This document shows, piece by piece, positions 5,597 to 51,260 of a stretch of 64,000 nucleotides of DNA. The notes under the pieces are model-generated. The model was not told where the DNA came from and ran no database searches. It saw only the letters and a list, made by a program, of their open reading frames with translations. Source of the DNA: a virus. A program made the position numbers and the translations under genes. The stretch's first letter is position 1, and each line of letters starts with the position of its first letter. The stretch is taken from UHGV virus genome UHGV-0174779; one strand, 5' to 3'.

Positions 5597-5601
5597 AAAC
5601 A

Positions 5602-34063: not shown

Positions 34064-34135
34064 TTGGTAGTAGATATGATAACTCTCAAATGTATATAGA
34101 GTACAATAAGAATTTGTATTTTACAGGAGAGAGTT

Positions 34136-34465
34136 ATGTTAGATTTGAGTAAAGTGGCCCCGCCCACTGAAGAGATTACAAAATCCAAGGTGATGCAACA
34201 GTTTTATCATCGTGATATGCTTGGTCGCTTTATCAAGAATCGTGATGTTGTTGCTTGGTCTATCGGTAATCAGGGATATCTGTTGAAGGTTCTTCAGGTT
34301 ACAGGTTCAACTGCTAAGCGAGTTAAGGTGTATGACCCTGAAATGGGGCGTTCTAAGTCAGTAGACCCACAGAACTGCATCGTAATTACCCAGCAGGTAA
34401 TGGATAATATTGCACGTAACGTTGCTAACTCAGTTGAACTTGATGGAGAAAACCCAAATGCATAA
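34136..34465 (+). CDS. hypothetical protein (109 aa)
   Basis: RBS GGAGAGAG. Confidence 0.45.
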   Translation: MLDLSKVAPPTEEITKSKVMQQFYHRDMLGRFIKNRDVVAWSIGNQGYLLKVLQVTGSTAKRVKVYDPEMGRSKSVDPQNCIVITQQVMDNIARNVANSVELDGENPNA

Positions 34466-35021
34466 GAATGTCTTTGATTTACCTGAGATTGGTCGTGACA
34501 GCTATAGTGTGTTAGACCGGTCTGAGCTTTCAATCTCTCGCCTTGAAACAATGCAGGGTATGATTAGTGGAAACAGCCTAGAACACATCCTGAGCTGCTT
34601 ACAAGCTAACATGGAACTCTTGCATATCAAAGCTAAAAACTACCACTGGAACGTCTCTGGTGCAGGATTTCAGGGTGTTCATGGTATGTTTGATGAGCTG
34701 GAAGATTACGCACGACAAGTAGGAGATCGTATTGCTGAACGTATGCGATACCACTGTGTTAAGGTGGATGCTACAGCAGCTAATTATCTTTCTCACGCTT
34801 GGTTCTCAGAGGGTAATGCTGACCTAGATATGGACGGTATGCTCTCTGATATGTGCATGACCTTGATGTGTATTATCGAGAAGATGGATGAGTTTGATGG
34901 CGATTTAGCCTCCTATCCTGTCGACCAGAGTATGCTTCAAGAAATTAATGAAGGTCTTGGCAAGTATTGTTACTTCGTCAAGAGTAACATGTCCCATTCC
35001 AGTGGTGATGTGTCTTACTAA
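34458..35021 (+). CDS. Dps/ferritin-like protein
   Basis: NYHWNVSGAGFQGVHGMFDELEDYARQVGDRIAERM matches the Dps signature (HWNV.G..F..LH..F.E.Y). Confidence 0.55.
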   Translation: MHKNVFDLPEIGRDSYSVLDRSELSISRLETMQGMISGNSLEHILSCLQANMELLHIKAKNYHWNVSGAGFQGVHGMFDELEDYARQVGDRIAERMRYHCVKVDATAANYLSHAWFSEGNADLDMDGMLSDMCMTLMCIIEKMDEFDGDLASYPVDQSMLQEINEGLGKYCYFVKSNMSHSSGDVSY

Positions 35022-35081
35022 AACTCAAGCCCTGCCTCCTAACCCGAGGTGGGGCGAACTTATTTATAAGGATATAGATAT

Positions 35082-35261
35082 ATGTTATCAGCAATCGTAT
35101 GGGGTATTTGGGCTATCTTTATCGGTGGTGGTATTTATTGGGCTTCTGGTAAGCTTATTGAAGAAACTCCTGATAAGAAAGGTGAGATTCAAACAGCATC
35201 AACCATCATGGTTATCGTAGCTGTTGTTATCCCGTTCCTGCTTCACCTCCTGACTGCATAA
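35082..35261 (+). CDS. small two-helix membrane protein (59 aa)
   Basis: Two hydrophobic segments; below track cutoff. Confidence 0.3.
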   Translation: MLSAIVWGIWAIFIGGGIYWASGKLIEETPDKKGEIQTASTIMVIVAVVIPFLLHLLTA

Positions 35262-35269
35262 GGATTTAC

Positions 35270-35548
35270 ATGTCTAAAGTAATTAAGTTTTATAGTGATC
35301 AGTGTGCTCCATGTAAAGCAATGGCTCCTACCTTTGAGAAGGTTGTTAAGGAGTTTGATGTAGAAGTGGAAGAGATTAACATCCTTGAAGGTGATGGTCG
35401 TGAACAAGCTGTTAAGTATGGTGTACGAAGTATCCCTGCTTTCGTTGTGCCTGACCGTAACAGTGGTGCACACTACAGCCTCTCTGGTATGCAGACTGAA
35501 GCAAACCTGAAAGCATTTTTGGATACAGCTCTGAATGGTAATCGATGA
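35270..35548 (+). CDS. thioredoxin/glutaredoxin-like protein (CAPC active site)
   Basis: FYSDQCAPCKAMAP CxxC motif in thioredoxin-fold context. Confidence 0.65.
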   Translation: MSKVIKFYSDQCAPCKAMAPTFEKVVKEFDVEVEEINILEGDGREQAVKYGVRSIPAFVVPDRNSGAHYSLSGMQTEANLKAFLDTALNGNR

Positions 35549-36005
35549 TTTAGAGTATATCCCTGAAACTGGAGAGTTCTTTCGAAAAGGTAAGAAATTA
35601 GGAGGAACTCGAAGTAAGTACATAACCCTGCGGTTTAAAGGGAAAGTACACAAAGCTCATAAAGTGGCATGGTTCTTTTACTATGGAGAATGGCCTTCTT
35701 CTCAGATAGACCATATCGATAGAAATAAGAAGAACAACTCAATACAGAACTTGAGGTTGGTGGACACCTCGACAAACTGCCACAACCAGTTCGGGGCTAG
35801 AGTATCAAACAAGGAAACAGGGCTTCAAGGTGTTAAGGTTGTCAAATACAGATCAGGCACTATCAGATATAGGGCTGTTATTTGTATTGATAAAGTAGAT
35901 ATACATCTAGGTATGTATGGAACTGCCGAAGAAGCTCATCAAGTTTACATGAATCGAAAAAAGGAACTTTTAATTGAACGAACAACTACAAGCAACACTG
36001 ATTGA
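35535..36005 (+). CDS. HNH homing endonuclease (HNH_3 plus AP2-like domain)
   Basis: KAHKVAWFFYYGEWPSSQIDHIDRNKKNNSIQNLRLVDTSTNCHNQ plus RYRAVICIDKVDIHLGMYGTAEEAHQVY. Confidence 0.7.
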   Translation: MVIDDLEYIPETGEFFRKGKKLGGTRSKYITLRFKGKVHKAHKVAWFFYYGEWPSSQIDHIDRNKKNNSIQNLRLVDTSTNCHNQFGARVSNKETGLQGVKVVKYRSGTIRYRAVICIDKVDIHLGMYGTAEEAHQVYMNRKKELLIERTTTSNTD

Positions 36006-36630
36006 AGCAATGGGAAGTGACAAATCTGTAGTCAATGCAGCTAGAGTATCTTTCGGTGTTGTTCGAGAAGGTGACTTAAATGAGAGAGACACAAAACTTA
36101 TCAACTTCCTTGCACGGGAAAAACACTGTACTCCATTCCGACACCCGCAAGTCAGTTTCCGATGCAAAGCACCTATCGCAATTGCGAGACAGTTGGGCAA
36201 GCATCAGGTTGGATTCTCGTGGAACGAAATGTCCCGGCGGTATAAAGATGGAGCAGTTGAAGTCTTCATCCCTAAAGAGATTTTTGCGAGACCTTCGGAC
36301 CTCCATGCAGGTTCAGGGATTCAACTCCTCAACGGAGAACGAGCTGAAGCATTAATGCTGATTAACGATGCATATGAAGCTTCTCTAGCAGCATATGACA
36401 AGTTGATTGAATTCGTTGCACCAGAGCAAGCCCGATTTGTTCTTCCTCAGGGGATGATCACTGAGTGGGTGTGGACTGGTTCTTTATATGGCTGGTTTGA
36501 GTTGTGTCGTCAGCGACTCTCCTCTCATGCTCAGTATGAAGTTCGAGTGTTTGCCCAATCTCTAGATGAAGAAATGGCTAAGCTCTACCCAGTCTCATGG
36601 GCAGCTTTGAAGAAAACTTTGGAGAATTAA
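35974..36630 (+). CDS. thyX: flavin-dependent thymidylate synthase (ThyX)-like
   Basis: AARVSFG near N-terminus and ARQLGKHQVGFSWNEMSRRY resembling the ThyX RHR..S...SxRY signature (with K/Q substitutions). Confidence 0.55.
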   Translation: MNEQLQATLIEAMGSDKSVVNAARVSFGVVREGDLNERDTKLINFLAREKHCTPFRHPQVSFRCKAPIAIARQLGKHQVGFSWNEMSRRYKDGAVEVFIPKEIFARPSDLHAGSGIQLLNGERAEALMLINDAYEASLAAYDKLIEFVAPEQARFVLPQGMITEWVWTGSLYGWFELCRQRLSSHAQYEVRVFAQSLDEEMAKLYPVSWAALKKTLEN

Positions 36631-36631
36631 A

Positions 36632-36874
36632 ATGGTTAGGAAGAATATTTGGATTCTGAGTCGTGTTGAGGATACAGACAGAGGAGAGGATACAGAAATT
36701 CTTTGCTCTTTCACTGACTATCCTACAAAGCAGCAGCTTGAGGATGTTGGAGTAGAAGAGGATGTTTCTCAATCTCTTTTTGATAAAAGGGTTTCCAACT
36801 TAACAGCCAAACCCTTTGGTTACTCCTACTACATGCTTGACAGTGTGGAATTATTCTCACCCAACAACATTTAA
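36632..36874 (+). CDS. hypothetical protein (80 aa)
   Basis: ORF only. Confidence 0.4.
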   Translation: MVRKNIWILSRVEDTDRGEDTEILCSFTDYPTKQQLEDVGVEEDVSQSLFDKRVSNLTAKPFGYSYYMLDSVELFSPNNI

Positions 36875-36889
36875 ATTTAAGGTTGTGAA

Positions 36890-37093
36890 ATGAAAACATT
36901 GTGGACTTTTGACTGCCAAGATGATGATGGAGAACGTTGGACTTGGAAATATTTCCTAGGGAAACCAACACCTGATACTCCTGCTTTGGATTGTGTTTCA
37001 TACAAAGATGCTAAGAAATTAGTAAATGGAGAAAAGGTTTGGTCTCCGGATAATGAAGTTCAGTACTTTTTAACAGAACGGAAATTTTCATAA
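36890..37093 (+). CDS. hypothetical protein (67 aa)
   Basis: ORF only. Confidence 0.4.
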   Translation: MKTLWTFDCQDDDGERWTWKYFLGKPTPDTPALDCVSYKDAKKLVNGEKVWSPDNEVQYFLTERKFS

Positions 37094-37422
37094 TGATTGA
37101 CAGTAATACATTTAAGACTTCAAATGGAAGTGAGATAAGTCCCGCTGAAGTAATCAATCGGCACAGAAGGCAATTGATCATCCATTCCTATTTGTATTAC
37201 TGGTTGGATGACCCTATCTGGTCTGATGATAAATGGCAACAAGTTGCTAATGATTTGGTTGAGTTGCAAGCTTTGTATCCAGATCCTACCGGAGTCTTTG
37301 ACAATGAGTTCAGGGATTGGGATGGTTCTACAGGGATGCACCTCCCACATAATGAGGCTGTTGCTTGTATGGCTACAGCTGTTTACAGGATTCATAAAGA
37401 TATGAACCATGAAGTGCTCTAA
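37093..37422 (+). CDS. hypothetical protein (109 aa)
   Basis: ORF only. Confidence 0.4.
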   Translation: MIDSNTFKTSNGSEISPAEVINRHRRQLIIHSYLYYWLDDPIWSDDKWQQVANDLVELQALYPDPTGVFDNEFRDWDGSTGMHLPHNEAVACMATAVYRIHKDMNHEVL

Positions 37423-37594
37423 ATGCGAAGGAACAAACCTTCATTTAAGTAACAAGGTTATCAGAGAGCTTGCCAAAGGCTCTCCAACCAAAGGGAAGAA
37501 CAAACGATTTACTAACGTCAGGGTTTATACAGCAATCTGTAAAGACTGTTTAACCACTGAGTGTCATTACGAAGAAATTGGAGAGCGTAAATGA
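37409..37594 (+). CDS. small zinc-ribbon protein (61 aa)
   Basis: CSKC...CKDC motif. Confidence 0.35.
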   Translation: MKCSKCEGTNLHLSNKVIRELAKGSPTKGKNKRFTNVRVYTAICKDCLTTECHYEEIGERK

Positions 37595-38328
37595 GTCGTC
37601 GTCAATCACGGAAAGAATCACGGAAAGATCTTCGTCGGGAAGCACTTGTTACTCGTAAGGGTAAGCGAGAGTATGAAGAGGTGGTTTTAGCAAAGCCTGT
37701 AGTCCCTCAGAACCAGTTTCAGTCTGAGCTACTCAATGCTATTAAGACTAAACAAGTTGTGTTCACAGACGCTCCTGCGGGCTGTGGTAAGACCTTTGTA
37801 ATCACTTCCACGGTTATTGATGCACTGAAGAGTGGTAAGATTCAGAAGATCATCCTAAGTCGACCTTCAGTTGGCATGGGTAACTCTCTTGGGTTACTTC
37901 CTGGAGGGATGCGTGAGAAGTTTGAACCGTACCTGATGCCTATTATTGATGTTATTACTCAGCGATATGGTAAGGGATTCTATGAATGCCAAATCGGAAA
38001 TGGTAACATTGAATTTGTACCTCTGGAATATCTCCGTGGTCGTTCTTTCAATGATGCTATTGTTATCGTAGACGAGTTCCAGAACACAACTAAGGATGAA
38101 GCCTTCTCCATCATGACTCGATTGGGAGAAACCTCTCAACTGTTCTGCATGGGTGATACAAACCAGCATGATATGCGTGGTCGTGAGAGTGGCCTAACTT
38201 GGGCTACTAATTTTATTGATGAACACGATCTGTATGAGTATGCTGAGATTGTAGATGGTGAATCGGATGACATTGTTCGTTCTGGTTTCTGTAAGGCGAT
38301 TGTTAAAGCAATGGAAAAGAAAGCTTAA
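37591..38328 (+). CDS. phoH: PhoH-like ATPase
   Basis: Walker A DAPAGCGKTF, LPGGMREKFEPYLMP, IVDEFQN, GDTNQ motifs. Confidence 0.75.
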   Translation: MSRRQSRKESRKDLRREALVTRKGKREYEEVVLAKPVVPQNQFQSELLNAIKTKQVVFTDAPAGCGKTFVITSTVIDALKSGKIQKIILSRPSVGMGNSLGLLPGGMREKFEPYLMPIIDVITQRYGKGFYECQIGNGNIEFVPLEYLRGRSFNDAIVIVDEFQNTTKDEAFSIMTRLGETSQLFCMGDTNQHDMRGRESGLTWATNFIDEHDLYEYAEIVDGESDDIVRSGFCKAIVKAMEKKA

Positions 38329-38339
38329 ATAGTAACTTA

Positions 38340-38348
38340 TAATGTATA
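38340..38348 (+). promoter_or_regulatory. TAATGTATA element, candidate phage-sigma-dependent (middle/late) promoter
   Basis: Exact 9-mer 37 nt upstream of ATG 38385; same 9-mer recurs at 42799 (+) and 51252-51260 (-). Confidence 0.4.
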
Positions 38349-38384
38349 CTCCTTAGTGTACACTGATATATTAAGGAGTTCTAA

Positions 38385-38702
38385 ATGGCAGACCATGTAG
38401 GAAAGAGAGATTATGCACAAGAAAGACGTACCGCAATTGCCCGTGGTGAAACAGGCGTTGGGAGCAAGAGCGGAGATGCTCAGCGCCACCGTGCACGTCG
38501 CATCGTTGAAAAGCGCGATGGAAAAGCTGCTGTCAGAGGTAAAGACGTTGGACACAAACGAGCTGTCAAGTCTGGAGGCTCTAATGCGTCAAGCAACTTA
38601 CGTGTTGAATCAGTCAGCTCAAACCGTTCAAACGGCGGCAAAAGTGGTGATCGAGCTGGAAAAGCAGCTGGATCTCGCAAAGGAGCTTTAAGCTCATCAT
38701 AA
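38385..38702 (+). CDS. basic low-complexity protein (105 aa); alternative overlapping frame 38413-38691 possible
   Basis: Strong RBS AAGGAG 7 nt upstream of ATG 38385; followed by terminator. Confidence 0.35.
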   Translation: MADHVGKRDYAQERRTAIARGETGVGSKSGDAQRHRARRIVEKRDGKAAVRGKDVGHKRAVKSGGSNASSNLRVESVSSNRSNGGKSGDRAGKAAGSRKGALSSS

Positions 38703-38707
38703 TATGA

Positions 38708-38737
38708 GGCTACCCAATCGGGTGGCCTTTTCTTTTA
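38708..38737 (+). terminator. rho-independent terminator (GGCTACCC-AATC-GGGTGGCC-TTTTCTTTT)
   Basis: 8-bp stem (one G-U) plus T-run. Confidence 0.55.
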
Positions 38738-38773
38738 TATAAACTAAAATTAATCTTATTAGGTAAATAAAAT

Positions 38774-39022
38774 ATGTCTATTGTAAAAACTGTAACCATT
38801 ACTGATAACACTAAATTTGGCTCCATTACAACTACCTTTTACGCTGCAACCAAATTGACTTCCCAGCAATGTGTATCAGCTATCAAGCAGGTCCCTTCTA
38901 CAGCTCGTACTAATGTAATCCTTCGTGGAGCTGACGGGAAGTTTATCTCTTATAAGAATAAAAAAGTAAACAAAGGAATTCGCGTTGCAGTAGAAAACCT
39001 GATCCCATTCCCAAAAGGTTGA
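38774..39022 (+). CDS. hypothetical protein (82 aa)
   Basis: ORF only. Confidence 0.4.
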   Translation: MSIVKTVTITDNTKFGSITTTFYAATKLTSQQCVSAIKQVPSTARTNVILRGADGKFISYKNKKVNKGIRVAVENLIPFPKG

Positions 39023-39025
39023 GTT

Positions 39026-39430
39026 ATGTCATTACCAACTAGACATCAAAACAGATTCTTAGTCCTCAAGTGGGATGATATCGAAATGAATCTCACTGAA
39101 CATGAACTAGATTTGTTTCATGAATTATTATCAGAGATTCGCTCTGGTATACCTGAACGTCAGTATGTAGTTATCAGTGATAAGCACCCTCAAGAGTTTG
39201 AAGAAGCTTGGGGTATGAAGCTGGCTTACATCCAAAGAGCTATTCGAGAAAGAGAAGAAGTTGCTAATCAGAGGGTCATGGCCCATCTAGTCAGAGAGCA
39301 GCCTCTTGAAGTTAGGTCTTCACCTACGTCATCTCCGTGGAGAGTTGAAGGTAACATTATCCGAGTATCCCCTAATGACCTAGATGCAATAGCTGACAAT
39401 CAAGCATTTACAGATTTACTTTACCAATAA
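39026..39430 (+). CDS. hypothetical protein (134 aa)
   Basis: ORF only. Confidence 0.45.
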   Translation: MSLPTRHQNRFLVLKWDDIEMNLTEHELDLFHELLSEIRSGIPERQYVVISDKHPQEFEEAWGMKLAYIQRAIREREEVANQRVMAHLVREQPLEVRSSPTSSPWRVEGNIIRVSPNDLDAIADNQAFTDLLYQ

Positions 39431-39446
39431 TTTAAAGGAGTATAAA

Positions 39447-41291
39447 GTGAGCAACCCGGACGCTCTTCCATTTTTGACAGAGATGACTGTCGCTGATATA
39501 ATCTCTAAGCAAGCAAAGCACGGAGTGAGTTTCAACCGAAGAAATGCTCGGTGGTATGTTCACCTCCTTAAAGAGATTATTGTTAATATTGATAAAGAAC
39601 TAATTCCTCTCTTACCTAAGATGAGATTAGACGGCTCTACTTATATGAAGCCGTTTAAGAAGTCTGGAGCTTTGCAGAAGTGGCCTCAAGCCTATTGTGA
39701 TAGGGTTGGGCTGAAGAGGGAGGACATTGGTGGAGCTTTCACCTGTGTCGAATACGTAGACTTTGACCCATCGAAGGATGCACGAGTTAAAGAAGCTCTT
39801 ATGGATGAGGGCTTTCTTCCTCCAGAGTTTAACGTATCTAAAAAGCCTTGGAATACTTTCGAAATTAAGAAAGATATGAGAAAGTATGGAACATACCAAG
39901 CATGGTATACTGCTTGGATGCGAGGCAATGCTAAGCAAAAGCAGACAGCCGAGATGGTTGACGCTGATATAAAGAAATTCTTAGAAAAGCATTTTAGATT
40001 TAAGACTAAGAATTACATGAAGGCTTACGTATTTGGTTTGGGATTAAACCCGAATCGCCGTAATCCTGTAACGTTTGATGAGATTAAGAAAGCACTAGCC
40101 ACATCAAACAAGTGGCCTACAGCTCCTACAAACCTCGAGGAGACTCTTGAAGAAGGGCTAGGGGGTGAGCTAGGGAGTGTTGGGAGTTTGCTTAAGAGAC
40201 GCGTTGTAGCGGCTCACAGGCTAGGTCTTATCAGTGGACTTATAGCAAAGGAACGCGAAGATGGTAAACTTTCAGCAGAAGCTAACAGCTGCGCTACGCC
40301 GACTTTTCGATTCAAACATCGTATCGTGGTTAATATTCCCTCCCGTGGTCTGTTTGGTCACGAGTGTCGCAGTTTGTTTGAGTCTGACTATAACTCAGAC
40401 AGTGATCACTCTCGTCCTTTCGTTATTACTAACGTTGTTCCTGATGGTTGTTATATACGAAAAGGTACTAACGTAATTTACGAGAAAGGTAAGCCGGGGA
40501 AGAAAGACAAACCTGTAGGTGCTTACAAATATTACATACCCGCTGGTAAAGAAGTATTCTTAGGGTATGATGGTTCTGGGTTAGAGTTGCGTATGTTAGT
40601 GCACTATCTTGTGAAAGAGTGCCTTGACATGATGGAAGAAGCCAAAGCAGAGAACGATAAAATTAAGTATCTTAGGGCTGAGAAAGGCTTAGAGGCTGCT
40701 TATACTTATCGAGAGGTTCTTCTCTCAGGTGATATCCATTCCCACAATCAGAAACTAGCTGGCCTACCAACTAGAGATAATGCAAAAACTTTTATCTATG
40801 GATTTCTATATGGGGCAGGCGCAGCTAAGATTGGAGAGATTGTTGGAGGAGGTGCTCAAGAGGGTGAAATTCTCAGAGAACGTTTCTTAGCAGAATGCCC
40901 TTGTATCCCAATTGTCTTGGAGAGAGTACAAGCTCGTGCAGAAACAGGTACTCTTGAAGGTGTGGATGGTCGTAAGTTGACCATGAGACGGGATGCTACT
41001 GGTAAGGTTATGGTGCATAAAGCCCTGAATACCCTACTCCAGAGTGCAGGTGCCATTGTCATGAAATACTCCATTTTGTTCACAAATAAATGGGTAGAGC
41101 AGCAGGGTATTAGAGGAAATAAGGTGATTGACTATCATGATGAAGCACAGTGGTCTGTCAACCGTAACGACATTGATAAAATGAAAGAGATAGCTGAGAC
41201 TTGTGTTAAAAAAGCAGGAGAATATCTAAACATGCACTGTGAATTAGCATCTGATTGTCAGATTGGATTAAATTGGATGCACACCCATTGA
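39447..41291 (+). CDS. DNA polymerase A (T7 gp5-like) polymerase domain, separate ORF (GTG start)
   Basis: Motif B RDNAKTFIYGFLYGAG and motif C YHDEAQW; lacks exonuclease domain, which is at 31405-31962. Confidence 0.85.
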   Translation: MSNPDALPFLTEMTVADIISKQAKHGVSFNRRNARWYVHLLKEIIVNIDKELIPLLPKMRLDGSTYMKPFKKSGALQKWPQAYCDRVGLKREDIGGAFTCVEYVDFDPSKDARVKEALMDEGFLPPEFNVSKKPWNTFEIKKDMRKYGTYQAWYTAWMRGNAKQKQTAEMVDADIKKFLEKHFRFKTKNYMKAYVFGLGLNPNRRNPVTFDEIKKALATSNKWPTAPTNLEETLEEGLGGELGSVGSLLKRRVVAAHRLGLISGLIAKEREDGKLSAEANSCATPTFRFKHRIVVNIPSRGLFGHECRSLFESDYNSDSDHSRPFVITNVVPDGCYIRKGTNVIYEKGKPGKKDKPVGAYKYYIPAGKEVFLGYDGSGLELRMLVHYLVKECLDMMEEAKAENDKIKYLRAEKGLEAAYTYREVLLSGDIHSHNQKLAGLPTRDNAKTFIYGFLYGAGAAKIGEIVGGGAQEGEILRERFLAECPCIPIVLERVQARAETGTLEGVDGRKLTMRRDATGKVMVHKALNTLLQSAGAIVMKYSILFTNKWVEQQGIRGNKVIDYHDEAQWSVNRNDIDKMKEIAETCVKKAGEYLNMHCELASDCQIGLNWMHTH

Positions 41292-41667
41292 TTCAGAACT
41301 GAAAAACTGGAACACTAATGAACTAGTCTTATTGATTGGTTCATAACAAGGAGATTGAAGTGGAAGAGATGCCATCGGATTGGTGCTATCGTCAAAGCAC
41401 CATCTGTAATGAACAAGGACGTGCTGATGAAGCGCAATACTATTTGGAATTAGCTGAATTATGGAAAGAGAGAGAGGAAAAGAATGACTGCAACTGAACT
41501 GAAAGAAACCCTATCCACTGAAGAAGGTAAAGCTTTCTTCTTATCTCAAGTACACTCCATGGGTAAAGATGCCCTTCGCCAAGCAGTTGTTGAGCTTACT
41601 GGTGTAGTGATTGATTTGAGCATTGAAAATGAAACACTTGAAGCTAAAGTGAACAGTTAAATAAAAA

Positions 41668-41690
41668 GCTGCCTTAGGGCGGCTTTTCTT
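41668..41690 (+). terminator. hairpin plus T-run after polymerase operon
   Basis: AGCTGCC-TTAG-GGCGGCT-TTTT. Confidence 0.45.
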
Positions 41691-41701
41691 GTCTAAAGGA
41701 T

Positions 41702-42100
41702 TTGGATATGAATATTGGTTTAGATTATGACGACACTTACACAGCAGATAGACGTCTGTGGAGAGATGTAATAGGCTTGATGAAAGAGTATGGACATGAT
41801 GTAAGATTCGTGACTTTCCGTTTCTCAGAGCCTAATGGTTATGATAACGTGGATATCCTGTACGATGCAGAGACCCTGCAAATCCCTGTCATCTTTTGTA
41901 ATGGTGTGCAGAAGGATGAGGTATGTCGACAGTTAGGTTTCTTTGTAGATATCTGGATTGACGACTTCCCTGTTGGAATCCCCAAAAAGGACCACCTAGA
42001 CGGTATGCTGAAGGGCGTAAGACTTAATGACCTTAGGGCAGCACCTCCTGTAGAAATAGCCGCTCCTGTGTACTCTGAAGAGCCTCTGGTTATACGTTAA
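41702..42100 (+). CDS. HAD-superfamily phosphatase-like protein (possible nucleotidase)
   Basis: N-terminal LDYDDT (DxDxT) motif. Confidence 0.4.
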   Translation: MDMNIGLDYDDTYTADRRLWRDVIGLMKEYGHDVRFVTFRFSEPNGYDNVDILYDAETLQIPVIFCNGVQKDEVCRQLGFFVDIWIDDFPVGIPKKDHLDGMLKGVRLNDLRAAPPVEIAAPVYSEEPLVIR

Positions 42101-42249
42101 TAAGGAAATTAAATGATTTGGATTCACACCTATAAGATTGGAAAGAAAGAGATCACCGTTGTGCATCACTCTGAAGAAAGTGCTAATGCTTCCAAAGAAG
42201 TTCTTAAAGGAGAAGTTAAAGTATACGCTGAAGTAAAAGGAAATGAAGA

Positions 42250-42438
42250 ATGATTAATAAAATTAAAGATAATGAATATTTACTTAACTCTTCTATTTTA
42301 GATAATGGAAATACTATTGATTTCATTACTCTTTCAGAGTTAAAAGAGTTAGTAGATTCTTTATATTCAGAGGAACAAAATCGTTTGTTACAAGAGTCTC
42401 TTAGTGGAGATTATGTTTGTGATGGATGCTTGATTTAA
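42250..42438 (+). CDS. hypothetical protein (62 aa)
   Basis: ORF only. Confidence 0.35.
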   Translation: MINKIKDNEYLLNSSILDNGNTIDFITLSELKELVDSLYSEEQNRLLQESLSGDYVCDGCLI

Positions 42439-42540
42439 CTTTCTTTATAATAGGTAATAAGTAATGGGTGTTTATGAGAAGTTTCTTGTTTTTGTATCAA
42501 TTTGTTTAGTGTTAGATGTAATAATTATCTATTCTTTTAA

Positions 42541-42606
42541 ATAGAGAATCAAAGTCCCTAGGAGTCCCTACAACCTAAATCAAGGATTCCTTAATTCTCT
42601 ATTTTT
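42541..42606. repeat. 11-bp perfect inverted repeat (AAATAGAGAAT / ATTCTCTATTT) flanking direct AGTCCCT repeats
   Basis: Read from sequence in ORF-free region upstream of SSB gene. Confidence 0.55.
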
Positions 42607-42798
42607 ATCACGCAGGTGGCTCCTGCCCTTCCGGTAGTCTCTCAATTTCTTACAAACTTATGAGAGATTGTCGTCTGCGCCTTATCGTCGTCAGTCCCGT
42701 GCAATAACTTTATCAGCTATACAATATATACATTACTGGTATGTTATATCTACTACCAAAGATACTTATACTATATAGTACTCTTATCGGTATAAGCG

Positions 42799-42807
42799 TA
42801 ATGTATA
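42799..42807 (+). promoter_or_regulatory. TAATGTATA element, candidate phage-sigma-dependent promoter
   Basis: Exact 9-mer 60 nt upstream of SSB ATG; reverse-oriented copy at 42727-42735. Confidence 0.4.
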
Positions 42808-42866
42808 CTATACATAACCGCTCAAAGAGAGCAACAATCTTTCAAACTAAATAAGGAAATTTAATA

Positions 42867-43613
42867 ATGAGCATGATTCCAACTATCGCAACTTCTTCCC
42901 GTAAATCCAACTACGATGTAATCCCTGATGGTGAATACGAAGCACGTATTGTTCGTGTAGTAGGTTTGGGTGTTCACAATCGTGACCCTTGGATTGACCC
43001 GAAGACCAAAGCAGTAACTCCTAAGAATCCAGCATTCCGTATGGATTTAGCTTTCGAGCTGATTGGCGTTGATGCTACTGGTAAAGATTCCGATGGTAAG
43101 GCATTAGAACCACGTCCGGCTTGCCAGTTCAAGAGCTATGATGTAAACCCACGAGCTAAGAACTCTGGTATTCTTGATCTTTGCAAGATGATTGACCCAA
43201 GCATTCAAGCACTGAAAGGTGATCTATCTTGGTTCAAGGATGTTCTGTTAGGTCAGCCTGTTAACATTCTGGTTAACTCTTACACTAATAAAGCTGGTGA
43301 AGTTAAAAACTCCATCAAGACCATTTCTCCAATCCCAACCAAATACCGTGCAGCAGTTGGTGAAGCTCGTAGTCCTCTGGTATTCTTCGAACCATATGCT
43401 GAAACCGATGAGAACGTAGCATCCTATCAACTGATGTTCCCGTTCCAGCGCAACCTGCTTACTCAAGCTAATGACGCTAAGAACATGCCTCTGGCTGGTC
43501 GTGAAATTACTCGTGCTTCTGAAACAGAACAGAAAGAAGCTACTCCTTCAATCCCTACGATTGATAAAGAGCCTGCTTCTACTTATGAAGATGATAACGA
43601 TTCGCCTTTCTGA
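42867..43613 (+). CDS. single-stranded DNA-binding protein (T7 gp2.5-like), putative
   Basis: Acidic C-terminal tail ending in Phe (EDDNDSPF), as in T7 gp2.5; followed by strong terminator. Confidence 0.5.
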   Translation: MSMIPTIATSSRKSNYDVIPDGEYEARIVRVVGLGVHNRDPWIDPKTKAVTPKNPAFRMDLAFELIGVDATGKDSDGKALEPRPACQFKSYDVNPRAKNSGILDLCKMIDPSIQALKGDLSWFKDVLLGQPVNILVNSYTNKAGEVKNSIKTISPIPTKYRAAVGEARSPLVFFEPYAETDENVASYQLMFPFQRNLLTQANDAKNMPLAGREITRASETEQKEATPSIPTIDKEPASTYEDDNDSPF

Positions 43614-43658: not shown

Positions 43659-43905
43659 GTTGGAGACAATATGAAAAGTACATTAAGTGATAATGTAGGT
43701 TTTATCATCTTCTCTGCTCTCGTGTTCTTTGGAGGTATGAAGTTCAATGAATACCGAACAGACAGTAACAATCTTGATAAAGAGAAGCATCAACAAGAGT
43801 TAGAGATTGAAAGAAGTAAGGCAGCTGATGAAGTTGCTCAGAGGGTTCTTACTGGTTTATCCGACTGGAAGAAGAACACGGAAACTGTTTATAAAGAGAT
43901 GCATT

Positions 43906-45076
<1,171 letters not shown>

Positions 45077-45077
45077 C

Positions 45078-45899
45078 ATGGAAGAAGTTAAGCTCCCTGA
45101 AGTAGCAATTGTGGACGCGGATGTTCTTCGATATGAGGTGGGTGCCCTTACTCAGGAGCATCCATTCCTTGACACAGGACGTGTTCCAGTCGATTACAAT
45201 TTCATGATTGAACGACTTCAGTACAAGATTGATACAATTATAGCTCGCTCGGGTTGTAGTAAGGTTGTATTCTACTTCAGCGAAGGTGGTAACTTCCGTT
45301 TCGATATCGCTAAGCAACAGGATTATAAAGGTAATCGAGCAATATCTGAGAAACCCTTCCACTGGAAAGCGGTCGGAGATTATATCAAAGAGCACTATGA
45401 GTATATTGACGTCTTTGGTAGAGAAGCAGATGACGCTTTAGCTGAAAGGCAGCGTAGAGACAAGAACACTATCATCTGTACTAGAGACAAAGATTTATTA
45501 ATAACCCCCGGATGGCATTATCGCTGGGCTTGTGGAGAAAGGCAGAAAGAGGTTCCCCCTCACTACGTATCCGATTTAGTTTCATGGCAAAACTTCTTCT
45601 ATCAAATGTTGATTGGAGATGGTACGGATAATATCCCCGGATGTGGGGAACGCAAAGAAGTTATGTGGGGTGGTAAGCTTCAGCTTCGACGTCAAGGAAT
45701 AGGGAAGAAGGCAGCAGCTAAATTACTAGCTGGTGTTACAGACAAATGGACCATGTATCATATAGTGCGAATGGAATATTATAAGAAGTTCGATACTGAA
45801 GATGAAGAGAAAATGCTTGAGAATGCTCGGCTTCTCTTTGTTGGTCAGACTCCAGAAGACCTATTTGATTGGTCATGGTTAAACAAATCTTGGGAATAA
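45078..45899 (+). CDS. 5'-3' exonuclease (T7 gp6 / FEN-like)
   Basis: IVDADVLRY, YKGNR, GREADD, CTRDKDL, GDGTDNIPG motifs aligning with T7 gene 6 exonuclease. Confidence 0.7.
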   Translation: MEEVKLPEVAIVDADVLRYEVGALTQEHPFLDTGRVPVDYNFMIERLQYKIDTIIARSGCSKVVFYFSEGGNFRFDIAKQQDYKGNRAISEKPFHWKAVGDYIKEHYEYIDVFGREADDALAERQRRDKNTIICTRDKDLLITPGWHYRWACGERQKEVPPHYVSDLVSWQNFFYQMLIGDGTDNIPGCGERKEVMWGGKLQLRRQGIGKKAAAKLLAGVTDKWTMYHIVRMEYYKKFDTEDEEKMLENARLLFVGQTPEDLFDWSWLNKSWE

Positions 45900-45909
45900 G
45901 GATGTTATA

Positions 45910-46089
45910 ATGGGTAAATTTGATTATCGTTCATATGATGAAAACTCCTCCAATCGTGAATCTCGTAAAGACCAAAAGATTAAGCATCAACTGTTTGATC
46001 AGCGGACTGGACGTATTCCTCGTGAAGGCAAAGTAAGTCATCGTGTAAACAAACGAGTTTGGGAAGAAGCTGATTATGGCGAAGTCTGA
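45910..46089 (+). CDS. small basic protein (59 aa)
   Basis: ATG with AAGGA RBS; below track cutoff. Confidence 0.3.
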   Translation: MGKFDYRSYDENSSNRESRKDQKIKHQLFDQRTGRIPREGKVSHRVNKRVWEEADYGEV

Positions 46090-46477
46090 GAAGACACGCT
46101 GTAGCGGAACGTGGACTGAAGCTCGTTACAACTCTTTCATCAAGTCAGGGATTCGTTCTCTGACTAGAAAGTGGAAGCCCATGTTCGATGCACTAGCAGA
46201 CGCCAAGACAGAGCAGAAGATTAACCCGAAGACAGGTAGACTGGCAATGCACTTTAAGTGTGCCATGTGTGGTTCTGACCACCCTGTAAAGGATATGGCT
46301 TTAGATCATATAAATCCTATCGTTCCTCTAGACCATGAGGCTAGCTGGGATGAAATTATCTCTCGTGCTCTGTGTGAGAAAGAAGGTTTTCAGGTTCTGT
46401 GTAAAGACCCTTGTCATAAACTAAAAACAAAGATGGAAAACGATGCAAGAAAACAATTCAAGAAAGGAAACGAGTGA
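46076..46477 (+). CDS. HNH nuclease-domain protein
   Basis: CAMCGSDHPVKDMALDHINP...LCKDPCHKLK HNH-like motif. Confidence 0.5.
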   Translation: MAKSEKTRCSGTWTEARYNSFIKSGIRSLTRKWKPMFDALADAKTEQKINPKTGRLAMHFKCAMCGSDHPVKDMALDHINPIVPLDHEASWDEIISRALCEKEGFQVLCKDPCHKLKTKMENDARKQFKKGNE

Positions 46478-46698
46478 TGATCAAAAAATCTACGCAACAA
46501 GTGCTTCGCTTTCGCTATCGCAACTGGAGAGGCGAGGTTGCTGACCGGTCCGTTATTCCACTCCGAACCTCCGTTGCTAGCTCCCGTTTTCATAACGGTG
46601 GCAAACCTTGTTGGATTATGACAGCGATAGATATAGAGAAAGATGAGATTCGAGAGTTCAAGCTCTCTGATATTATTCAATATTATGATTTGATCTAG
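46474..46698 (+). CDS. hypothetical protein (74 aa)
   Basis: ORF only. Confidence 0.4.
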   Translation: MMIKKSTQQVLRFRYRNWRGEVADRSVIPLRTSVASSRFHNGGKPCWIMTAIDIEKDEIREFKLSDIIQYYDLI

Positions 46699-46706
46699 GA
46701 GAAAAT

Positions 46707-46832
46707 ATGATCTATAGTCAAGATATTCTGGATGAATTGCTTAAAATGACAAATCGCCTTACAGAGATTATTGAAGAAATAAAAGCCAGAGAAGAGTCTT
46801 ACTTAGCATCCGAGGAAAATTGGGATGTATGA
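46707..46832 (+). CDS. small acidic protein (41 aa)
   Basis: ATG with TAGGAG RBS. Confidence 0.25.
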   Translation: MIYSQDILDELLKMTNRLTEIIEEIKAREESYLASEENWDV

Positions 46833-46866
46833 TGAATTTGACGGTTTTTAAAACTTAGAAACAAAT

Positions 46867-46906
46867 AAAGCCCTCTTGGATTTCTCCTTGAGGGCTTTTC
46901 TTTTAT
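46867..46906. terminator. bidirectional terminator between convergent plus and minus gene blocks
   Basis: AAAGCCCTC...GAGGGCTTT hairpin flanked by A-rich (left) and T-rich (right) runs. Confidence 0.55.
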
Positions 46907-49900
46907 CACTCCTTAGGTCGAACTCTTACACGGAGTCTCGATTGACGCTTACTGCGTTCAAGCTTCTCTGACAATGAGCCACGTTTAATCTTCGGCTTCC
47001 CTTCGTCATTAAACTTCTCCAAGAACTGTAAGTACTCAGTACGATTCGTTGTCTTGTAAGAAGGAATCTTAATATCAGGGTTCTCTTCAATCACGCGTCT
47101 CATCTTCGCTACATCATCCCTGCCAAGCAACTTACTCTTAGCCTGTTCAGCTGTAGAACCAAAGATCTTCTCCAGTGCTCTGGATTTGTTACCACCTGCG
47201 GAAGAAGCACCAAGTTTAGCAATGGCAGAATAATCATCAGCACTAAACCAAGCTACTGGATTATCACCATACTTCTTCTTGTTTTCAGCAGCAGTCTGCA
47301 ATGCACGTACAAAGCGACGGTTGTTACCAGCCTTGTCAGCACCATGAACCCTGTCTAAAACTTCAGCCACACTGACTAACTCATCTAAGCTCTTCCCATT
47401 TAAGAAAGCTTTCTCTGCTTTATCAGCAAAGGCTTCTTCCTGTTGTTTGATACTTTCCAAGATATCGGAACTTGCTTGAGATCTTTCATCGTCAGGCAGA
47501 GCAGAACGAACCTTCTCCATCTCCAACTCTTCCTCTTGCAGTTTCTTAATATCAGAGTCAACCTTCTGAGCCTCCTCAACAGCCTTCCTAGTATCCGCAT
47601 CCAAGTTATCAAGCTTACCTTCAGTATCTCCAGTAACCTTAACAATCTCTTTCTCGATAGGAGTCATTGATTCGTACTTCTTAGCAAACTTCTCAACATC
47701 AGCCTCGATACGAGAACGAGCATTCTGATGCTCAGTCGGAGTCATAGGCTTCTCAAGAAGTGCATAACGGTTATCCATATAGGAACCAGCAAATGCTTCA
47801 GCATCCTCTCTAGATATGCCCTTATCTTCCATAGTACGCATCAGGCGGCGATGAATATCATCACGTTGACGTTGTACTGCCATAAGATCATTCTCACGCT
47901 CTTGGGCCGCTTTAAGCTCTTCACTGCGCTTAACTCTCTTGTCCACATCAAACTTACGGTTCATTTCTTCCGCTTGCTCATACATCCTGTTCCACTTAGC
48001 CTGACGAGCATCTTCCTCTGCATCAGTTAAACGACGCTGACGATCAAGGTAATCTGACTCGGCGTTATGGATACGTTCAATGTAACTACGGAACTTCTCT
48101 GGAGGAACTGGAGAGTTCTTATCGTGGTGAGCAGCCAACTGTTTCAATGTACGAGATTCCTGAGCCTCACGAACAGGTTTAGGTAAACCTTCCATCATCT
48201 TCTCAATCTCACTCTTCTGAGCTGCAATAGCCTCTAGAGTTTTACGTTCATTCTCAACAGCAGCCTTAGCATCTGAACGAGCCTGAGCTTTGTTTTTCAG
48301 AGTAGCAAGACGTTCTTCACGAGCTTGTATGTGTTTAGCAAAAGCTTCGTACTGAGAGTTTTTGTTAGCTTTATTGAAGGCATTCACTTCTCTGTTATAG
48401 GTGTTAATAAACCCATCCCAAATATCCTTCATCTGACCAACTTCCAAAGCCTCCTCCCTACCAGCCTTCTCTGAAGATTTAAACTTCCCATCTACAAAGT
48501 CATTCATCAACTTACGCATAGCATCTTTCTGAGCAGGACGTAAAGGTTCTGAATCAATCAAAGCATCAATCTCAGACTGAAGCTCTTTCTTCTGGTCAAC
48601 CAGTTTAGGAGCATCTTTCCTATCAAAAGCTTTGTTCTCTTCTAGAGCTTGTTGATACAACCTATCAAACTCATCCTCACGCTGCTTCTGATACAATCTT
48701 TCAGCACGACGTTTCAGACTATCCAAGTTAGTCACGTTCCCACCTAAACCTTTCTCCTCAGCACGTAATGCCTTAGTAGCAATGTCTTCTGGTAGACCAC
48801 GTTCCTTAACCCATTCAGCAAAATTAGTTCGTACAGTGTTGTTCTTAGCAGTAGCAATACCTTGCTGAGAAGCTAGCTGGTTACGAGCCATTTCTTCATG
48901 ACGTTCAGTGTTGATAGCATTATCTTCCTGACGAATGCGACGCATCAATTCCTTAGGGTCACCTTTATAAGCCAAGAAGTTTTCAGCAGTAGCTTTAGCC
49001 TTAGCAGCTTTAGAGTACAGAGAACGAGCAAAACGTTCTGCACGATCTTTAGTAGCCTGACGAGCAGCACTAGACATAGCAGCTAAACGTTCTACACCAC
49101 TTGCCGGTTTAACGTCCTGTACAGCTTCCTTAGGAGCTTTAGGAGCACGGGCAGGTAATGGCTCAGCTTTGACTGTTGGTTCCTCTACAGTTGGTTCTGG
49201 AGCCTGTGCGGCCTCTTCTTGAGCACGACGTTGTTCTGCCTGTTTAACTGCGCGTCTTTGAGCAACTAAATCACGAGCCGTAAGAGGGGTTTCTTGAGGA
49301 GCAGAGGAAGGAAGATTTTCTTCCGTCACAGTACTAGAAGAAGGCTCCCGAACCGGTTCGGTTTCCACATCATTTTGAGTCTTAAATTTAATGTCATCAA
49401 CAACTGGTTCTTCTTCCATCTTAGCCCGAGCTTCATCAGCAGTAGATTTAGCACGAGCAACTTCCAAATCACCACGAGCTAAAGAGCGGATAGCTTCACT
49501 GTTAGATTCTTGTTGCTTAACACGTTGAGAGCGAGCACGCTGAGAAGAGAAGCGATTCAGAGCATATTTAGCAGCACCGAGAGTATTCATTACCAGACTA
49601 GGAGAAGAAGCCTCACGGAAGCCATCATCAGTCAGGGAAGTCCAGCCACGATCTTGGTTGCTCATGAACTTAGCCGTATTGTTCAGAGTGTAAGCATCTT
49701 GGATAGGATTAAAACCTTCAGGCATACCTTTCAGTTTCTTCAACCCACCGATAGCTTTCTTCATCTCTGGAGAAACATTATCAGCCATCTTCTGTAGTTC
49801 AGTAGCTTTCTCTACAAAGTTATTAAAATCTTCACCTTCACGAGCTTTGAATCGATTTGCTTCATTGTAGAAAGTCTTGTAAGCATCAATGAAATCACGG

Positions 49901-51213
49901 TCAGCTTGTGTACGATTCTTAATATCAATCGGACTACCAGTAAAATCACCAGAAGCTCGGAGAGAAGTTAATTCACGGTCTAGGTTATCTAGAACATCTG
50001 TAAGAGCTTTCGTGTTGTCTTTGGTGTAGTCAGCCATCGCATCCTTCATAGCAACAGCCTGTTTCTGGTTGTGCTCATTATCAGCGAAAGCTTTACCACG
50101 AGTCTTAGCAGGAGAAGCTAAAGGATTAAGGCCAGGAATATTGGAATGTTCTTTCTGAACAGAAGCAGCTTTCTCAGCACGAGCTTGGTCAGTATTAAGA
50201 ATACGCTGAGCAGCAGGAGAATCTACAGCAACAGCATCTGTAATACGGAATCCATTCTCATCCAGAAGATTCAGAGCAGAAGCAGCGTTAGCAGTTTCAG
50301 CTTTAGAGTAAGCTTCTTTCAATTCATCAATATTTTTAGCACTACGAATCAGTTCGTCATCAGCAGCAATATCAGTCTTCGCATACTCTGGAGTGTTCTT
50401 GAAGACAGCAGAATCCGGACGGCTAATCAAACCATGAACTCCACCAACTGCGCCACCAAATGCAGCACCCATAGCCCCTTCTTCTATAACACCTTCCAAT
50501 GTCTTAGCTAGATCATTGTCATCACCATATTTGTTCTGAACCTCAGCAGCACCAACAAGAGCACCACCTTTAGCACCAGCCACTGCGTTACTAGCAACGT
50601 TCTGACCGATACGACCAAGAGCTGATTCAGCTGTCCCAACAGCACCCGGAAGGATTCTTTGAGCTGCATAGTTAGCACCACCAACTAGGGCTGCATCTAG
50701 AACAGACTTATCTTCCCCCTCTTTAGGGGTTTGGTCTGCATATGCACGACCGGTCTCACGACCTGCAATGATAGCAGCGGCAGCTAATGGGTTAGCAACT
50801 GTCAGACCAATGTCGGCAACCACCCCAGCATACTGACCAGCAGACTTACCAATCCCATCCTCAATCTTATCCATACGTTCTTTCAAGAGGTTTTGAGCGT
50901 TCTCTTGCATACGCTTCCCGTAACCAGTTTGTGCTCCAGTTAGATCTTCACCAATCTCAACTAAGCCTCCAATACCTCTAGCAAGATTAGCAGAGATATT
51001 TGCACCACCAGATTGAAGAGCATTTGACACACCTTGAGCAAACTCACCTATAGCACCACGTTCTTCTTGTTGTGGTTGTGCTACTGGTTGTTCCTCAGGA
51101 ATAGAGCCACCTGCTGCCTTATATTGTTCTCTCATTTGAGCTTGACGCTCCGGAGAGGCATTCAGATACGCAGGAGCTTTGGAAGCTTCTTCCCACGGTT
51201 TAATGTTAGCCAT
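46906..51213 (-). CDS. large virion protein (1435 aa), glycine-rich hydrophobic N-terminal region plus long coiled coil; putative internal/ejection or tape-measure-like protein
   Basis: Start at ATG 51213 (MANIKPWEE) with AAGGAG RBS rather than track start 51258; composition typical of phage internal/ejection proteins. Confidence 0.7.
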   Translation of the reverse strand: MANIKPWEEASKAPAYLNASPERQAQMREQYKAAGGSIPEEQPVAQPQQEERGAIGEFAQGVSNALQSGGANISANLARGIGGLVEIGEDLTGAQTGYGKRMQENAQNLLKERMDKIEDGIGKSAGQYAGVVADIGLTVANPLAAAAIIAGRETGRAYADQTPKEGEDKSVLDAALVGGANYAAQRILPGAVGTAESALGRIGQNVASNAVAGAKGGALVGAAEVQNKYGDDNDLAKTLEGVIEEGAMGAAFGGAVGGVHGLISRPDSAVFKNTPEYAKTDIAADDELIRSAKNIDELKEAYSKAETANAASALNLLDENGFRITDAVAVDSPAAQRILNTDQARAEKAASVQKEHSNIPGLNPLASPAKTRGKAFADNEHNQKQAVAMKDAMADYTKDNTKALTDVLDNLDRELTSLRASGDFTGSPIDIKNRTQADRDFIDAYKTFYNEANRFKAREGEDFNNFVEKATELQKMADNVSPEMKKAIGGLKKLKGMPEGFNPIQDAYTLNNTAKFMSNQDRGWTSLTDDGFREASSPSLVMNTLGAAKYALNRFSSQRARSQRVKQQESNSEAIRSLARGDLEVARAKSTADEARAKMEEEPVVDDIKFKTQNDVETEPVREPSSSTVTEENLPSSAPQETPLTARDLVAQRRAVKQAEQRRAQEEAAQAPEPTVEEPTVKAEPLPARAPKAPKEAVQDVKPASGVERLAAMSSAARQATKDRAERFARSLYSKAAKAKATAENFLAYKGDPKELMRRIRQEDNAINTERHEEMARNQLASQQGIATAKNNTVRTNFAEWVKERGLPEDIATKALRAEEKGLGGNVTNLDSLKRRAERLYQKQREDEFDRLYQQALEENKAFDRKDAPKLVDQKKELQSEIDALIDSEPLRPAQKDAMRKLMNDFVDGKFKSSEKAGREEALEVGQMKDIWDGFINTYNREVNAFNKANKNSQYEAFAKHIQAREERLATLKNKAQARSDAKAAVENERKTLEAIAAQKSEIEKMMEGLPKPVREAQESRTLKQLAAHHDKNSPVPPEKFRSYIERIHNAESDYLDRQRRLTDAEEDARQAKWNRMYEQAEEMNRKFDVDKRVKRSEELKAAQERENDLMAVQRQRDDIHRRLMRTMEDKGISREDAEAFAGSYMDNRYALLEKPMTPTEHQNARSRIEADVEKFAKKYESMTPIEKEIVKVTGDTEGKLDNLDADTRKAVEEAQKVDSDIKKLQEEELEMEKVRSALPDDERSQASSDILESIKQQEEAFADKAEKAFLNGKSLDELVSVAEVLDRVHGADKAGNNRRFVRALQTAAENKKKYGDNPVAWFSADDYSAIAKLGASSAGGNKSRALEKIFGSTAEQAKSKLLGRDDVAKMRRVIEENPDIKIPSYKTTNRTEYLQFLEKFNDEGKPKIKRGSLSEKLERSKRQSRLRVRVRPKE

Positions 51214-51251
51214 AACGTCTCCTTTTATAAATAAAAATGTCCTACCCCCTA

Positions 51252-51260
51252 TATACATTA
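51252..51260 (-). promoter_or_regulatory. TAATGTATA element (minus strand), candidate late promoter for the 1435-aa gene
   Basis: Exact 9-mer on minus strand about 40 nt upstream of ATG 51213, within a hairpin-forming segment. Confidence 0.4.

Follow-up and report, generated by a model that had tools for sequence, protein, structure and literature searches.

Sigma-factor promoter elements in a phiEco32-like phage genome, with a probable additional promoter on the opposite strand

What does a nine-base element do that recurs between genes on both strands of a phage genome? The question is raised by a 64,000-nucleotide (nt) stretch of virus genome UHGV-0174779, hereafter the window. A sequence-only reading noticed the 9-mer TAATGTATA at several intergenic positions and, because the middle and late promoters of phage phiEco32 were reported to share a similar element, proposed that the copies are candidate promoters for the phage sigma factor. 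By its sequence, the window is a phiEco32-like coliphage (Kuravirus): the segment from 36 to 46 kb shares 88-92% identity with ~60 phiEco32-like Escherichia coli phages (Gordonclarkvirinae, mostly Kuravirus). The TAATGTATA-type copies are very probably promoters of the holoenzyme formed with the phage sigma factor gp36, working as they do in phiEco32. Since the sites are orthologous to published phiEco32 promoters, the proposed interpretation is supported and the feature is already known; the finding as originally written is a known promoter class in another phiEco32-like isolate. One further copy, here called Pas, lies on the strand opposite the middle genes. It is likely a working gp36 promoter and, as it was not found described, may be new.

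The link to phiEco32 was correct. The gp36 promoters of that phage are defined by a single element, tAATGTAtA, with transcription starting 6-8 base pairs (bp) downstream (PMC8948821), and they precede genes 6, 13, 26, 40, 58 and 68 (PMC4331800). The SU10 paper and its Table S2 list the same six in phage SU10 (PMC4281155). An open complex in which RNA polymerase, gp36 and gp79 are bound to P68, the gene 68 promoter, has also been solved by cryo-electron microscopy (cryo-EM) (PMC12276001). In this complex, the N-terminal domain of gp36 reads -14A, -13A, -12T and -11G, the two strands are separated from -11 to +2, and the C-terminal domain reaches upstream, where R187 contacts -37G and Y186 contacts the T opposite -34A; mutations at the contacted promoter positions abolish activity (PMC12276001). 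The gp36 holoenzyme transcribes phiEco32 P26 and P68 in vitro, and gp79, which inhibits the sigma70 holoenzyme and co-activates that of gp36, stimulates both promoters three- to four-fold while blocking sigma70 (PMC12276001). The cryo-EM numbering places the 9-mer at -15 to -7 and the transcription start (+1) at the seventh base after it. All starts predicted below follow from the published spacing between element and start.

A whole-window scan located exact TAATGTATA at 38340-38348 on the plus strand (+), 42727-42735 on the minus strand (-), 42799-42807 (+) and 51252-51260 (-), in agreement with the four positions first noticed, and the near match, the variant AAATGTATA, was likewise present at 34088-34096 (+). 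These five sites are real, but a sixth had been missed: the variant TAATGTAGA at 5557-5565 (-), directly upstream of an open reading frame (ORF) of 157 amino acids (aa) at 5072-5545. The initial estimate of about 0.5 chance matches was correct as well, as 0.64 exact copies are expected against the four observed, and none of 100 dinucleotide-preserving shuffles gave four. All six promoter-type copies fall in non-coding DNA, which makes up ~13% of the window (coding DNA ~87%). The coding share comes from a crude gene map using the longest ORFs, and because of this, seven bases of the 51252 site are counted as coding. The real start of the gene behind this site is an ATG at 51213, preceded by a Shine-Dalgarno (SD) sequence, which yields the 1435 aa that had been claimed for it.

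Could the recurrence of this AT-rich 9-mer nevertheless be due to chance, in intergenic DNA that is AT-rich too, with no function common to the copies? Intergenic DNA is AT-rich here, and looser searches stay at chance level throughout the window, with 22 occurrences of TAATGTATA allowing one mismatch (20.7 expected) and 11 of the pattern AATGTANA (12.7 expected), neither of them enriched. Only those variants count that the published consensus tAATGTAtA allows. It is the exact copies that exceed expectation, each copy stays unchanged at its orthologous position in three genera although its flanks diverge, and the copies coincide with experimentally mapped phiEco32 promoters (PMC8948821, PMC4331800). 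The probability left for chance repetition is negligible.

The orthology can be followed site by site. In the phiEco32 record the motif lies at 1677-1685 for P6 (TAATGTAGA), at 9101 for P13 and at 26014 for P26, and on the minus strand at 36632 for P40, 42937 for P58 and 46862 for P68 (AAATGTATA). P13 sits with genes 10-14, beyond the window. At P6, P26, P40, P58 and P68 the flanks in the window, 30 bp upstream and 45 bp downstream, are identical or near-identical to those of phiEco32, so that four of the proposed sigma-factor promoters correspond to P26, P40, P58 and P68. The five orthologous sites are also present in the Suseptimavirus relatives L006, L011 and L012 and in the Nieuwekanaalvirus L007.

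The late sites are P6 and P26. P6 (5557-5565, -) has the flanks of phiEco32 P6, a G at -37, an A at -34 and a predicted +1 at ~5550, and lies upstream of the phi32_6 homologue at 5072-5545. P26 (51252-51260, -; predicted +1 at 51245) has flanks identical to those of phiEco32 P26 and precedes the 1435-aa gene at 46906-51213. The middle sites are P68, P58 and P40. P68 (34088-34096, +) is identical in sequence to its phiEco32 counterpart, has a predicted +1 at 34103 and stands upstream of a 109-aa ORF (34136-34465), the phi32_68 homologue; it is kept in the Suseptimavirus relatives L011 and L012. The P58 orthologue (38340-38348, +; predicted +1 at 38355) precedes a 105-aa ORF (38385-38702) and is invariant in relatives L003-L007, L011 and L012. 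The P40 orthologue (42799-42807, +; predicted +1 at 42814) is invariant in 23 of 23 relatives and lies upstream of a 248-aa ORF (42867-43613). The name 'SSB' that the sequence-only reading gave to the latter gene is one that some GenBank annotators use and not something demonstrated; its product is 'hypothetical' in phiEco32, and PHROGs and Pfam give it no function.

The proteins that would recognize these sites are encoded in the same genome. The cognate sigma factor gene, the gp36 homologue, lies at 44166-44810 (+), with 98% identity to phi32_gp36, a match to PDB 9m7y chain F (E=3e-142) and a weak match to Pfam Sigma70_r2. The gene of the gp79 homologue, the co-activator, lies at 27615-27863 (+) and has 99% identity to phi32_79. 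In the 9-mer, its positions and flanks, the sigma factor (98%), gp79 (99%) and the -37 purine and -34 A, the window is like phiEco32, and its five sites show no material difference.

The upstream contacts seen in the structure recur at the sites themselves. A purine at -37 together with an A at -34 occurs in seven of seven sites, that is, the six in the window and phiEco32 P13. Among the 46 AATGTA hexamers in the window, 11 have this combination, comprising all six promoter-type sites and five of the 40 others. A hypergeometric estimate puts this enrichment at ~5e-5, which is post hoc although prompted by the structure. The rule supports the structural claim, made in 2025, that these promoters are not strictly single-element. 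At P68, the -35 region is the 14-mer TTGGTAGTAGATAT (-39 to -26; 34064-34077, +), which includes the gp36-contacted -37G and -34A, and Pas shares TTGGTAGTAGATAT in the same region. The late promoters P13 and P26 have TAAGACCTA in common at about -38 to -30 (phiEco32 record 9056-9100; window 51261-51305, -). This distribution suggests that -35-region subclasses might underlie middle versus late timing.

Another candidate reader of these elements is the host. The elements might be, or double as, sigma70 promoters, with a TATA-rich -10 and TTGGTA or TAGATA as -35. A sigma70-type scan does flag TAGATA-18-TATATT over Pas (9 of 12 positions), and the SU10 paper marks P68 with a sigma70 -35 and -10, the TTGGTA of the P68 box serving as -35, which counts against an exclusive gp36 assignment; it further suggests that both holoenzymes express the middle genes (PMC4281155). 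However, the scanned region holds seven sigma70-like sites against 5.2 expected and is thus unenriched, and cryo-EM puts gp36, not sigma70, on both the -10 and the -35 of P68 (PMC12276001). In vitro transcription of P26 and P68 by the gp36 holoenzyme points the same way (PMC12276001), as does the shut-off of sigma70 transcription by gp79 when these genes are expressed (PMC8948821, PMC12276001). The sigma70 reading is improbable overall; in its pure form it is, like chance repetition, effectively excluded by conservation, literature and structure, while dual sigma70/gp36 use of the middle promoters, as suggested for SU10, is conceivable.

Transferred to the phage of the window, the published mechanism would operate as follows. 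The 9-mer would form a -10-like element (-15 to -7) used by E. coli core polymerase with the phage sigma factor. The N-terminal domain of gp36 would read -14 A A T G -11 and open the DNA from -11 to +2, and its C-terminal domain would touch -37 and -34. By displacing region 4 of sigma70, gp79 would shut off host and early transcription, and it would also stabilise the C-terminal domain of gp36. Transcription would start ~7 nt past the 9-mer, with P6 and P26 acting as late and P40, P58 and P68 as middle promoters. That these sites are used in this phage is deduced from their sequence identity, position, conservation and architecture. Two points weaken the transfer: start sites and gp36 dependence are carried over by analogy with phiEco32, and the phiEco32 promoter mapping (Pavlova et al. 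2012) is known via later citing papers.

The remaining exact copy was present in the original list but stood there without interpretation, although it is the only part of the finding that is possibly new. Pas (42727-42735, -) has a predicted +1 at 42720 (-) and lies in a 428-bp gap between the ORF at 42250-42438 and the gene-40 homologue. It is back-to-back with P40, 63 bp apart and pointing away. A copy of Pas is carried by phiEco32 too (record 36704-36712), and it is absent from the published six-promoter lists (PMC8948821, PMC4331800, PMC4281155). Pas shares the intergenic position of the others, yet no gene follows it and the six mapped promoters do not include it.

Conservation speaks for a function. 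The spacers of 23 distinct relatives were compared, a set that combines metagenome and IMG/VR contigs with GenBank phages of the three genera. In 22 of these, Pas is preserved exactly, amid hypervariable flanks. Across the 23 sequences, hardly any change occurs at -37 to -27 and at -15 to -5, while every position of the 10-bp spacer between them deviates from the consensus in at least six. This conserved/variable/conserved pattern at fixed spacing looks like a two-part promoter. Its -35 region (42746-42759, -) is the same 14-mer, TTGGTAGTAGATAT, at the same 10-bp spacing as in P68. The 14-mer has exactly two copies in the window, at P68 and Pas, and is retained at both places in relatives of the three genera. 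Pas is therefore the genome's closest match to the structurally characterised promoter, and its -10 part is better than that of P68. Together, these features make it likely that Pas functions as a gp36 promoter, probably a seventh one that makes a non-coding transcript from a P68-like two-part design; as predicted from the sequence, this minus-strand RNA would run through a 5' hairpin and then a 93-nt block.

If gp36 holoenzyme starts at Pas, what would be transcribed? No credible ORF occurs in the 280 nt downstream of Pas. The only small ORFs found downstream of Pas have 20-21 codons and TTG starts and lie within a module that is swapped among relatives; they were rejected. Rfam gives no match at the gathering threshold anywhere in the window except a borderline transfer RNA (tRNA) elsewhere, and none at E<=10 in 42300-42900.

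A hairpin, AUAGCU-GAUAA-AGUUAU (42704-42720, -), can form in the initial 17 nt of the predicted transcript. Among the relatives, 98.5% of cells are paired and two of six pairs are compensatory, and none of 500 shuffles reaches the covariation score. The stem variants include AGUU/AACU, AGA/UCU, AGCU/AGCU and AGAGUUA/UAACUCU. In half of the distinct sequences one pair is G-U, an A-C mismatch on the plus strand, and because of this the segment folds only as minus-strand RNA. Between this hairpin and the conserved block lies a module that exists in two alternative versions, which assort independently and make the spacer a mosaic.

The block itself (42539-42631, -) is 93 nt of non-coding DNA, with neither an ORF nor an Rfam match, that would lie on the Pas transcript. 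In relatives with only 79-81% identity in the adjoining gene-40 DNA, the block still shows 93-99%. Its minus-strand RNA folds into an uninterrupted 14-bp helix that includes two G-U pairs. For the region as a whole, fold energy does not discriminate between the strands, as the values are -52.5 (minus) and -48.9 kcal/mol (plus) with similar z-scores. No further copies of the block were found in the window, in E. coli genomes or in bacterial genome contigs, and scans of IMG/VR and metagenomes returned phiEco32-like contigs only. The distant relatives L008-L010, whose gene-40 protein is 67-70% identical, have neither the block nor Pas and carry a different upstream element; they cannot inform function because both are missing there. 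A different conserved spacer, with TATAATGGATAAAG and repeated GCTTAGCTT/GCTAGCTTTGCTAG, was seen in these genomes ~145 bp upstream of the gene-40 homologue, and it may represent a promoter type of their own sigma factor.

The Pas RNA could be a regulatory non-coding RNA. It might be an antisense RNA directed at the upstream middle operon (homologues of genes 41-47), either at its 3' end or at its read-through RNA, or it might act in trans or bind protein, with the conserved block as its functional core. The covarying hairpin coincides exactly with the predicted +1, where a stabilising 5' stem-loop is typically found, and only minus-strand RNA folds into it. The 14-bp helix of the block likewise uses two G-U pairs on the minus strand that become A-C mismatches on the plus strand, and the block is more conserved than the adjacent gene. 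As no terminator is predicted in 41500-43500, the transcript would run antisense into the ORF at 42250-42438. However, no Rfam family matches, and the invariant block offers no covariation. In addition, the inverted repeat of the block, followed by U5 on the plus strand, could instead be a terminator for the upstream operon. A regulatory or antisense RNA is a possible, tentative assignment, and it ranks first among the three considered for Pas.

Second in rank comes a primer or R-loop transcript that runs into a replication origin, composed of promoter, structured block and an AT-rich unwinding region. Pas faces 280 nt without an ORF, and past the conserved block, at 42250-42550 (170-470 nt downstream of Pas), the DNA has only 14-30% GC. 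The plus-strand GC skew is negative over 42525-42800, whereas the surrounding plus-strand genes have positive values, and the Pas RNA would therefore be G-rich. The locus lies among the DNA polymerase, exonuclease and primase-helicase genes, and the literature search found no phiEco32 origin described. Comparable designs are familiar from other phages: ori(uvsY) and ori(34) of T4 combine a middle promoter with a downstream unwinding element, and the primary origin of T7 combines the promoters phi1.1A/B with an AT-rich region. Pas resembles them in being middle-type and geneless and in firing toward structured, then AT-rich DNA amid replication genes, but their sequences are dissimilar to the Pas locus and the likeness is one of analogy only. 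The argument for an origin is purely architectural, AT-rich intergenic spacers are common in this genome, and skew mostly follows transcription in this phage. No iterons or DnaA boxes were noticed by eye, without a dedicated scan, and the distant relatives L008-L010 lack the arrangement. An origin transcript is accordingly doubtful, if less so than the third option.

That third option is a site where gp36 holoenzyme binds and no productive transcript follows, so that Pas would act as a roadblock or insulator that keeps read-through out of the gene-40 operon, as a sigma sink or as part of a DNA-level element that is conserved for another reason. The missing downstream gene and the back-to-back position, 63 bp from P40, would suit such a role. 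So would an insertion of ~120 bp between Pas and P40 in several relatives, which disturbs neither and leaves both intact. This explanation, however, leaves two things unaccounted for: the covarying hairpin at the predicted transcript start, and the retention of -35 and -10 parts at exact spacing around a freely varying spacer, which is the signature of a working promoter. The third option is distinctly unlikely. The insertion itself (L003 ~9760-9900; also in L022 and L029-L032) contains another GGTAGTAGGT-like box and inverted repeats of its own.

Several observations weigh against Pas as the promoter of a structured transcript. No gene lies downstream of it, and in the metagenome contig L029, the exception among the 23 relatives, the site reads TAATATATA. 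An intrinsic terminator scan of 41500-43500 on both strands, reaching ~1.2 kb past the Pas start, found none. The 5' hairpin is weak (-3.0 kcal/mol, z = -0.33), and the 93-nt block shows no covariation, because it is nearly invariant, and folds about equally well on both strands. The literature search found no Kuravirus transcript 5'-end data, antisense RNA or origin report. Taken for Kuravirus, Nieuwekanaalvirus and Suseptimavirus as a whole, the proposal that a seventh gp36 promoter, Pas, drives a structured non-coding RNA, either a replication primer or a regulatory/antisense RNA, is put forward with reserve, as somewhat short of an even chance.

Two of the orthologous promoters are embedded in RNA structures of their own. 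At P58, a 13-bp hairpin (38348-38379, +) pairs the SD sequence AAGGAG of the gene-58 homologue with CUCCUU. It is conserved in eight relatives, and the predicted start at 38355 falls within its 5' arm. The fold has -14.7 kcal/mol in read-through RNA and -1.3 in RNA from 38355. P58-initiated RNA would thus stay open, and only the read-through form be occluded. In T4, the ribosome-binding site of the genes e, soc and I-TevI is sequestered by a hairpin, which late transcripts escape by starting within it. The P58 design is like that of e and soc, and the P58 case is deduced from sequence alone. At P26, the element occupies the apex of a 15-bp terminator-like hairpin (51239-51273, -) that is followed by a U-run to ~51227. 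Its fold energy is -22.9 kcal/mol (z = -4.2), a stability matched by 0 of 200 shuffles. P26 therefore appears to overlap the terminator that ends the late gene upstream. Several positions of the stem differ in Suseptimavirus relatives.

A similar overlap is seen at P6. Immediately upstream of this element, a terminator hairpin, GCCUCC-GUUG-GGAGGC, with a U-run (region 5545-5605, -) overlaps -37/-34. An SD sequence, AGGAG, lies between the element and the predicted +1, and because it precedes the start, a messenger RNA initiated at P6 would carry just ~5 nt of leader and lack an SD sequence. The PHROG profile aligns with the 157-aa phi32_6 homologue from residue 16 onward only.

Other copies in the window were considered as promoters and set aside. 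The sole other AATGTATA copy, AAATGTATA at 12265 (+), lies inside a coding ORF, has no phiEco32 counterpart and is not a promoter. The copy TAATGTATT at 7148-7156 (-) does combine a G at -37 with an A at -34; its place, however, is in the terminal-repeat region, and phiEco32 reads TAATGAATA there. The one-mismatch neighbours at 42718-42726 (-) and 42809-42817 (-) are unconserved as motifs in relatives. Before the holin gene (62149-62367), TAATATATA at 62381-62389 (-) is probably no gp36 promoter, because A replaces the critical -11 G and a C stands at -34; the sequence is conserved in phiEco32, directly ahead of the holin SD sequence. Antisense AAATGTATA copies with conserved flanks also occur within coding regions of the Suseptimavirus relatives L006 (261-269, -) and L011 (3288-3296, -), and the window has no such copy.

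Relative to the window, the phiEco32 record has the opposite orientation (reverse complement) and is circularly permuted. Genes 9 to 1 occupy the minus strand at 0.9-7.7 kb, the early and middle genes the plus strand at 7.8-46.7 kb, and the late genes 26 to 15 the minus strand from 46.9 kb. The segment at ~7050-7210 (-) has its homologue in the left terminal repeat of phiEco32, at the initial ~150 bp of that record. This phage probably has its physical end near 7200, its record being permuted relative to phiEco32. The borderline Rfam tRNA match lies at 15723-15801 (+), with 30.2 bits against a gathering score of 29, while ARAGORN finds zero tRNAs over the whole window; a tRNA-Arg is annotated in the early region of phiEco32.

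Phage-directed promoter switching of this kind has parallels elsewhere. In T4, the late promoters, TATAAATA, are read by gp55, and AsiA and MotA bring about the switch to the middle mode. We know of no sliding-clamp coupling for the gp36 system, unlike T4, and gp79 is unrelated to AsiA. Both systems nevertheless use a compact -10-type element with a phage sigma-like protein, and in both a small protein disables region 4 of sigma70 and promotes phage transcription (PMC12276001). In contrast to T4, gp36 has a sigma4-like C-terminal domain contacting -37 and -34 (PMC12276001). Another parallel is phage 7-11, a related podovirus of C3 morphotype, in which the phage sigma SaPh711_gp47 steers host core polymerase to equivalently placed promoters (PMC8948821). 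However, its late consensus is the two-part GTAAtg-(16)-aCTA, its sigma factor is ~15% identical, and it has neither a gp79 homologue nor a middle class (PMC8948821). No TAATGTATA-type sites are reported for 7-11 and GAP52 (PMC8948821).

For the genome at hand, the finding is of use mainly in annotation, as it sets the promoters and operon boundaries. Its wider interest lies in the fact that phiEco32 is a structural and biochemical model for sigma replacement through gp36 and gp79, with six promoters catalogued. Pas, a conserved orphan whose architecture comes closest to that of P68, would lend itself readily as a substrate to work on sigma replacement. It could also lead to a non-coding RNA or a replication origin, which would be the first for this phage group.

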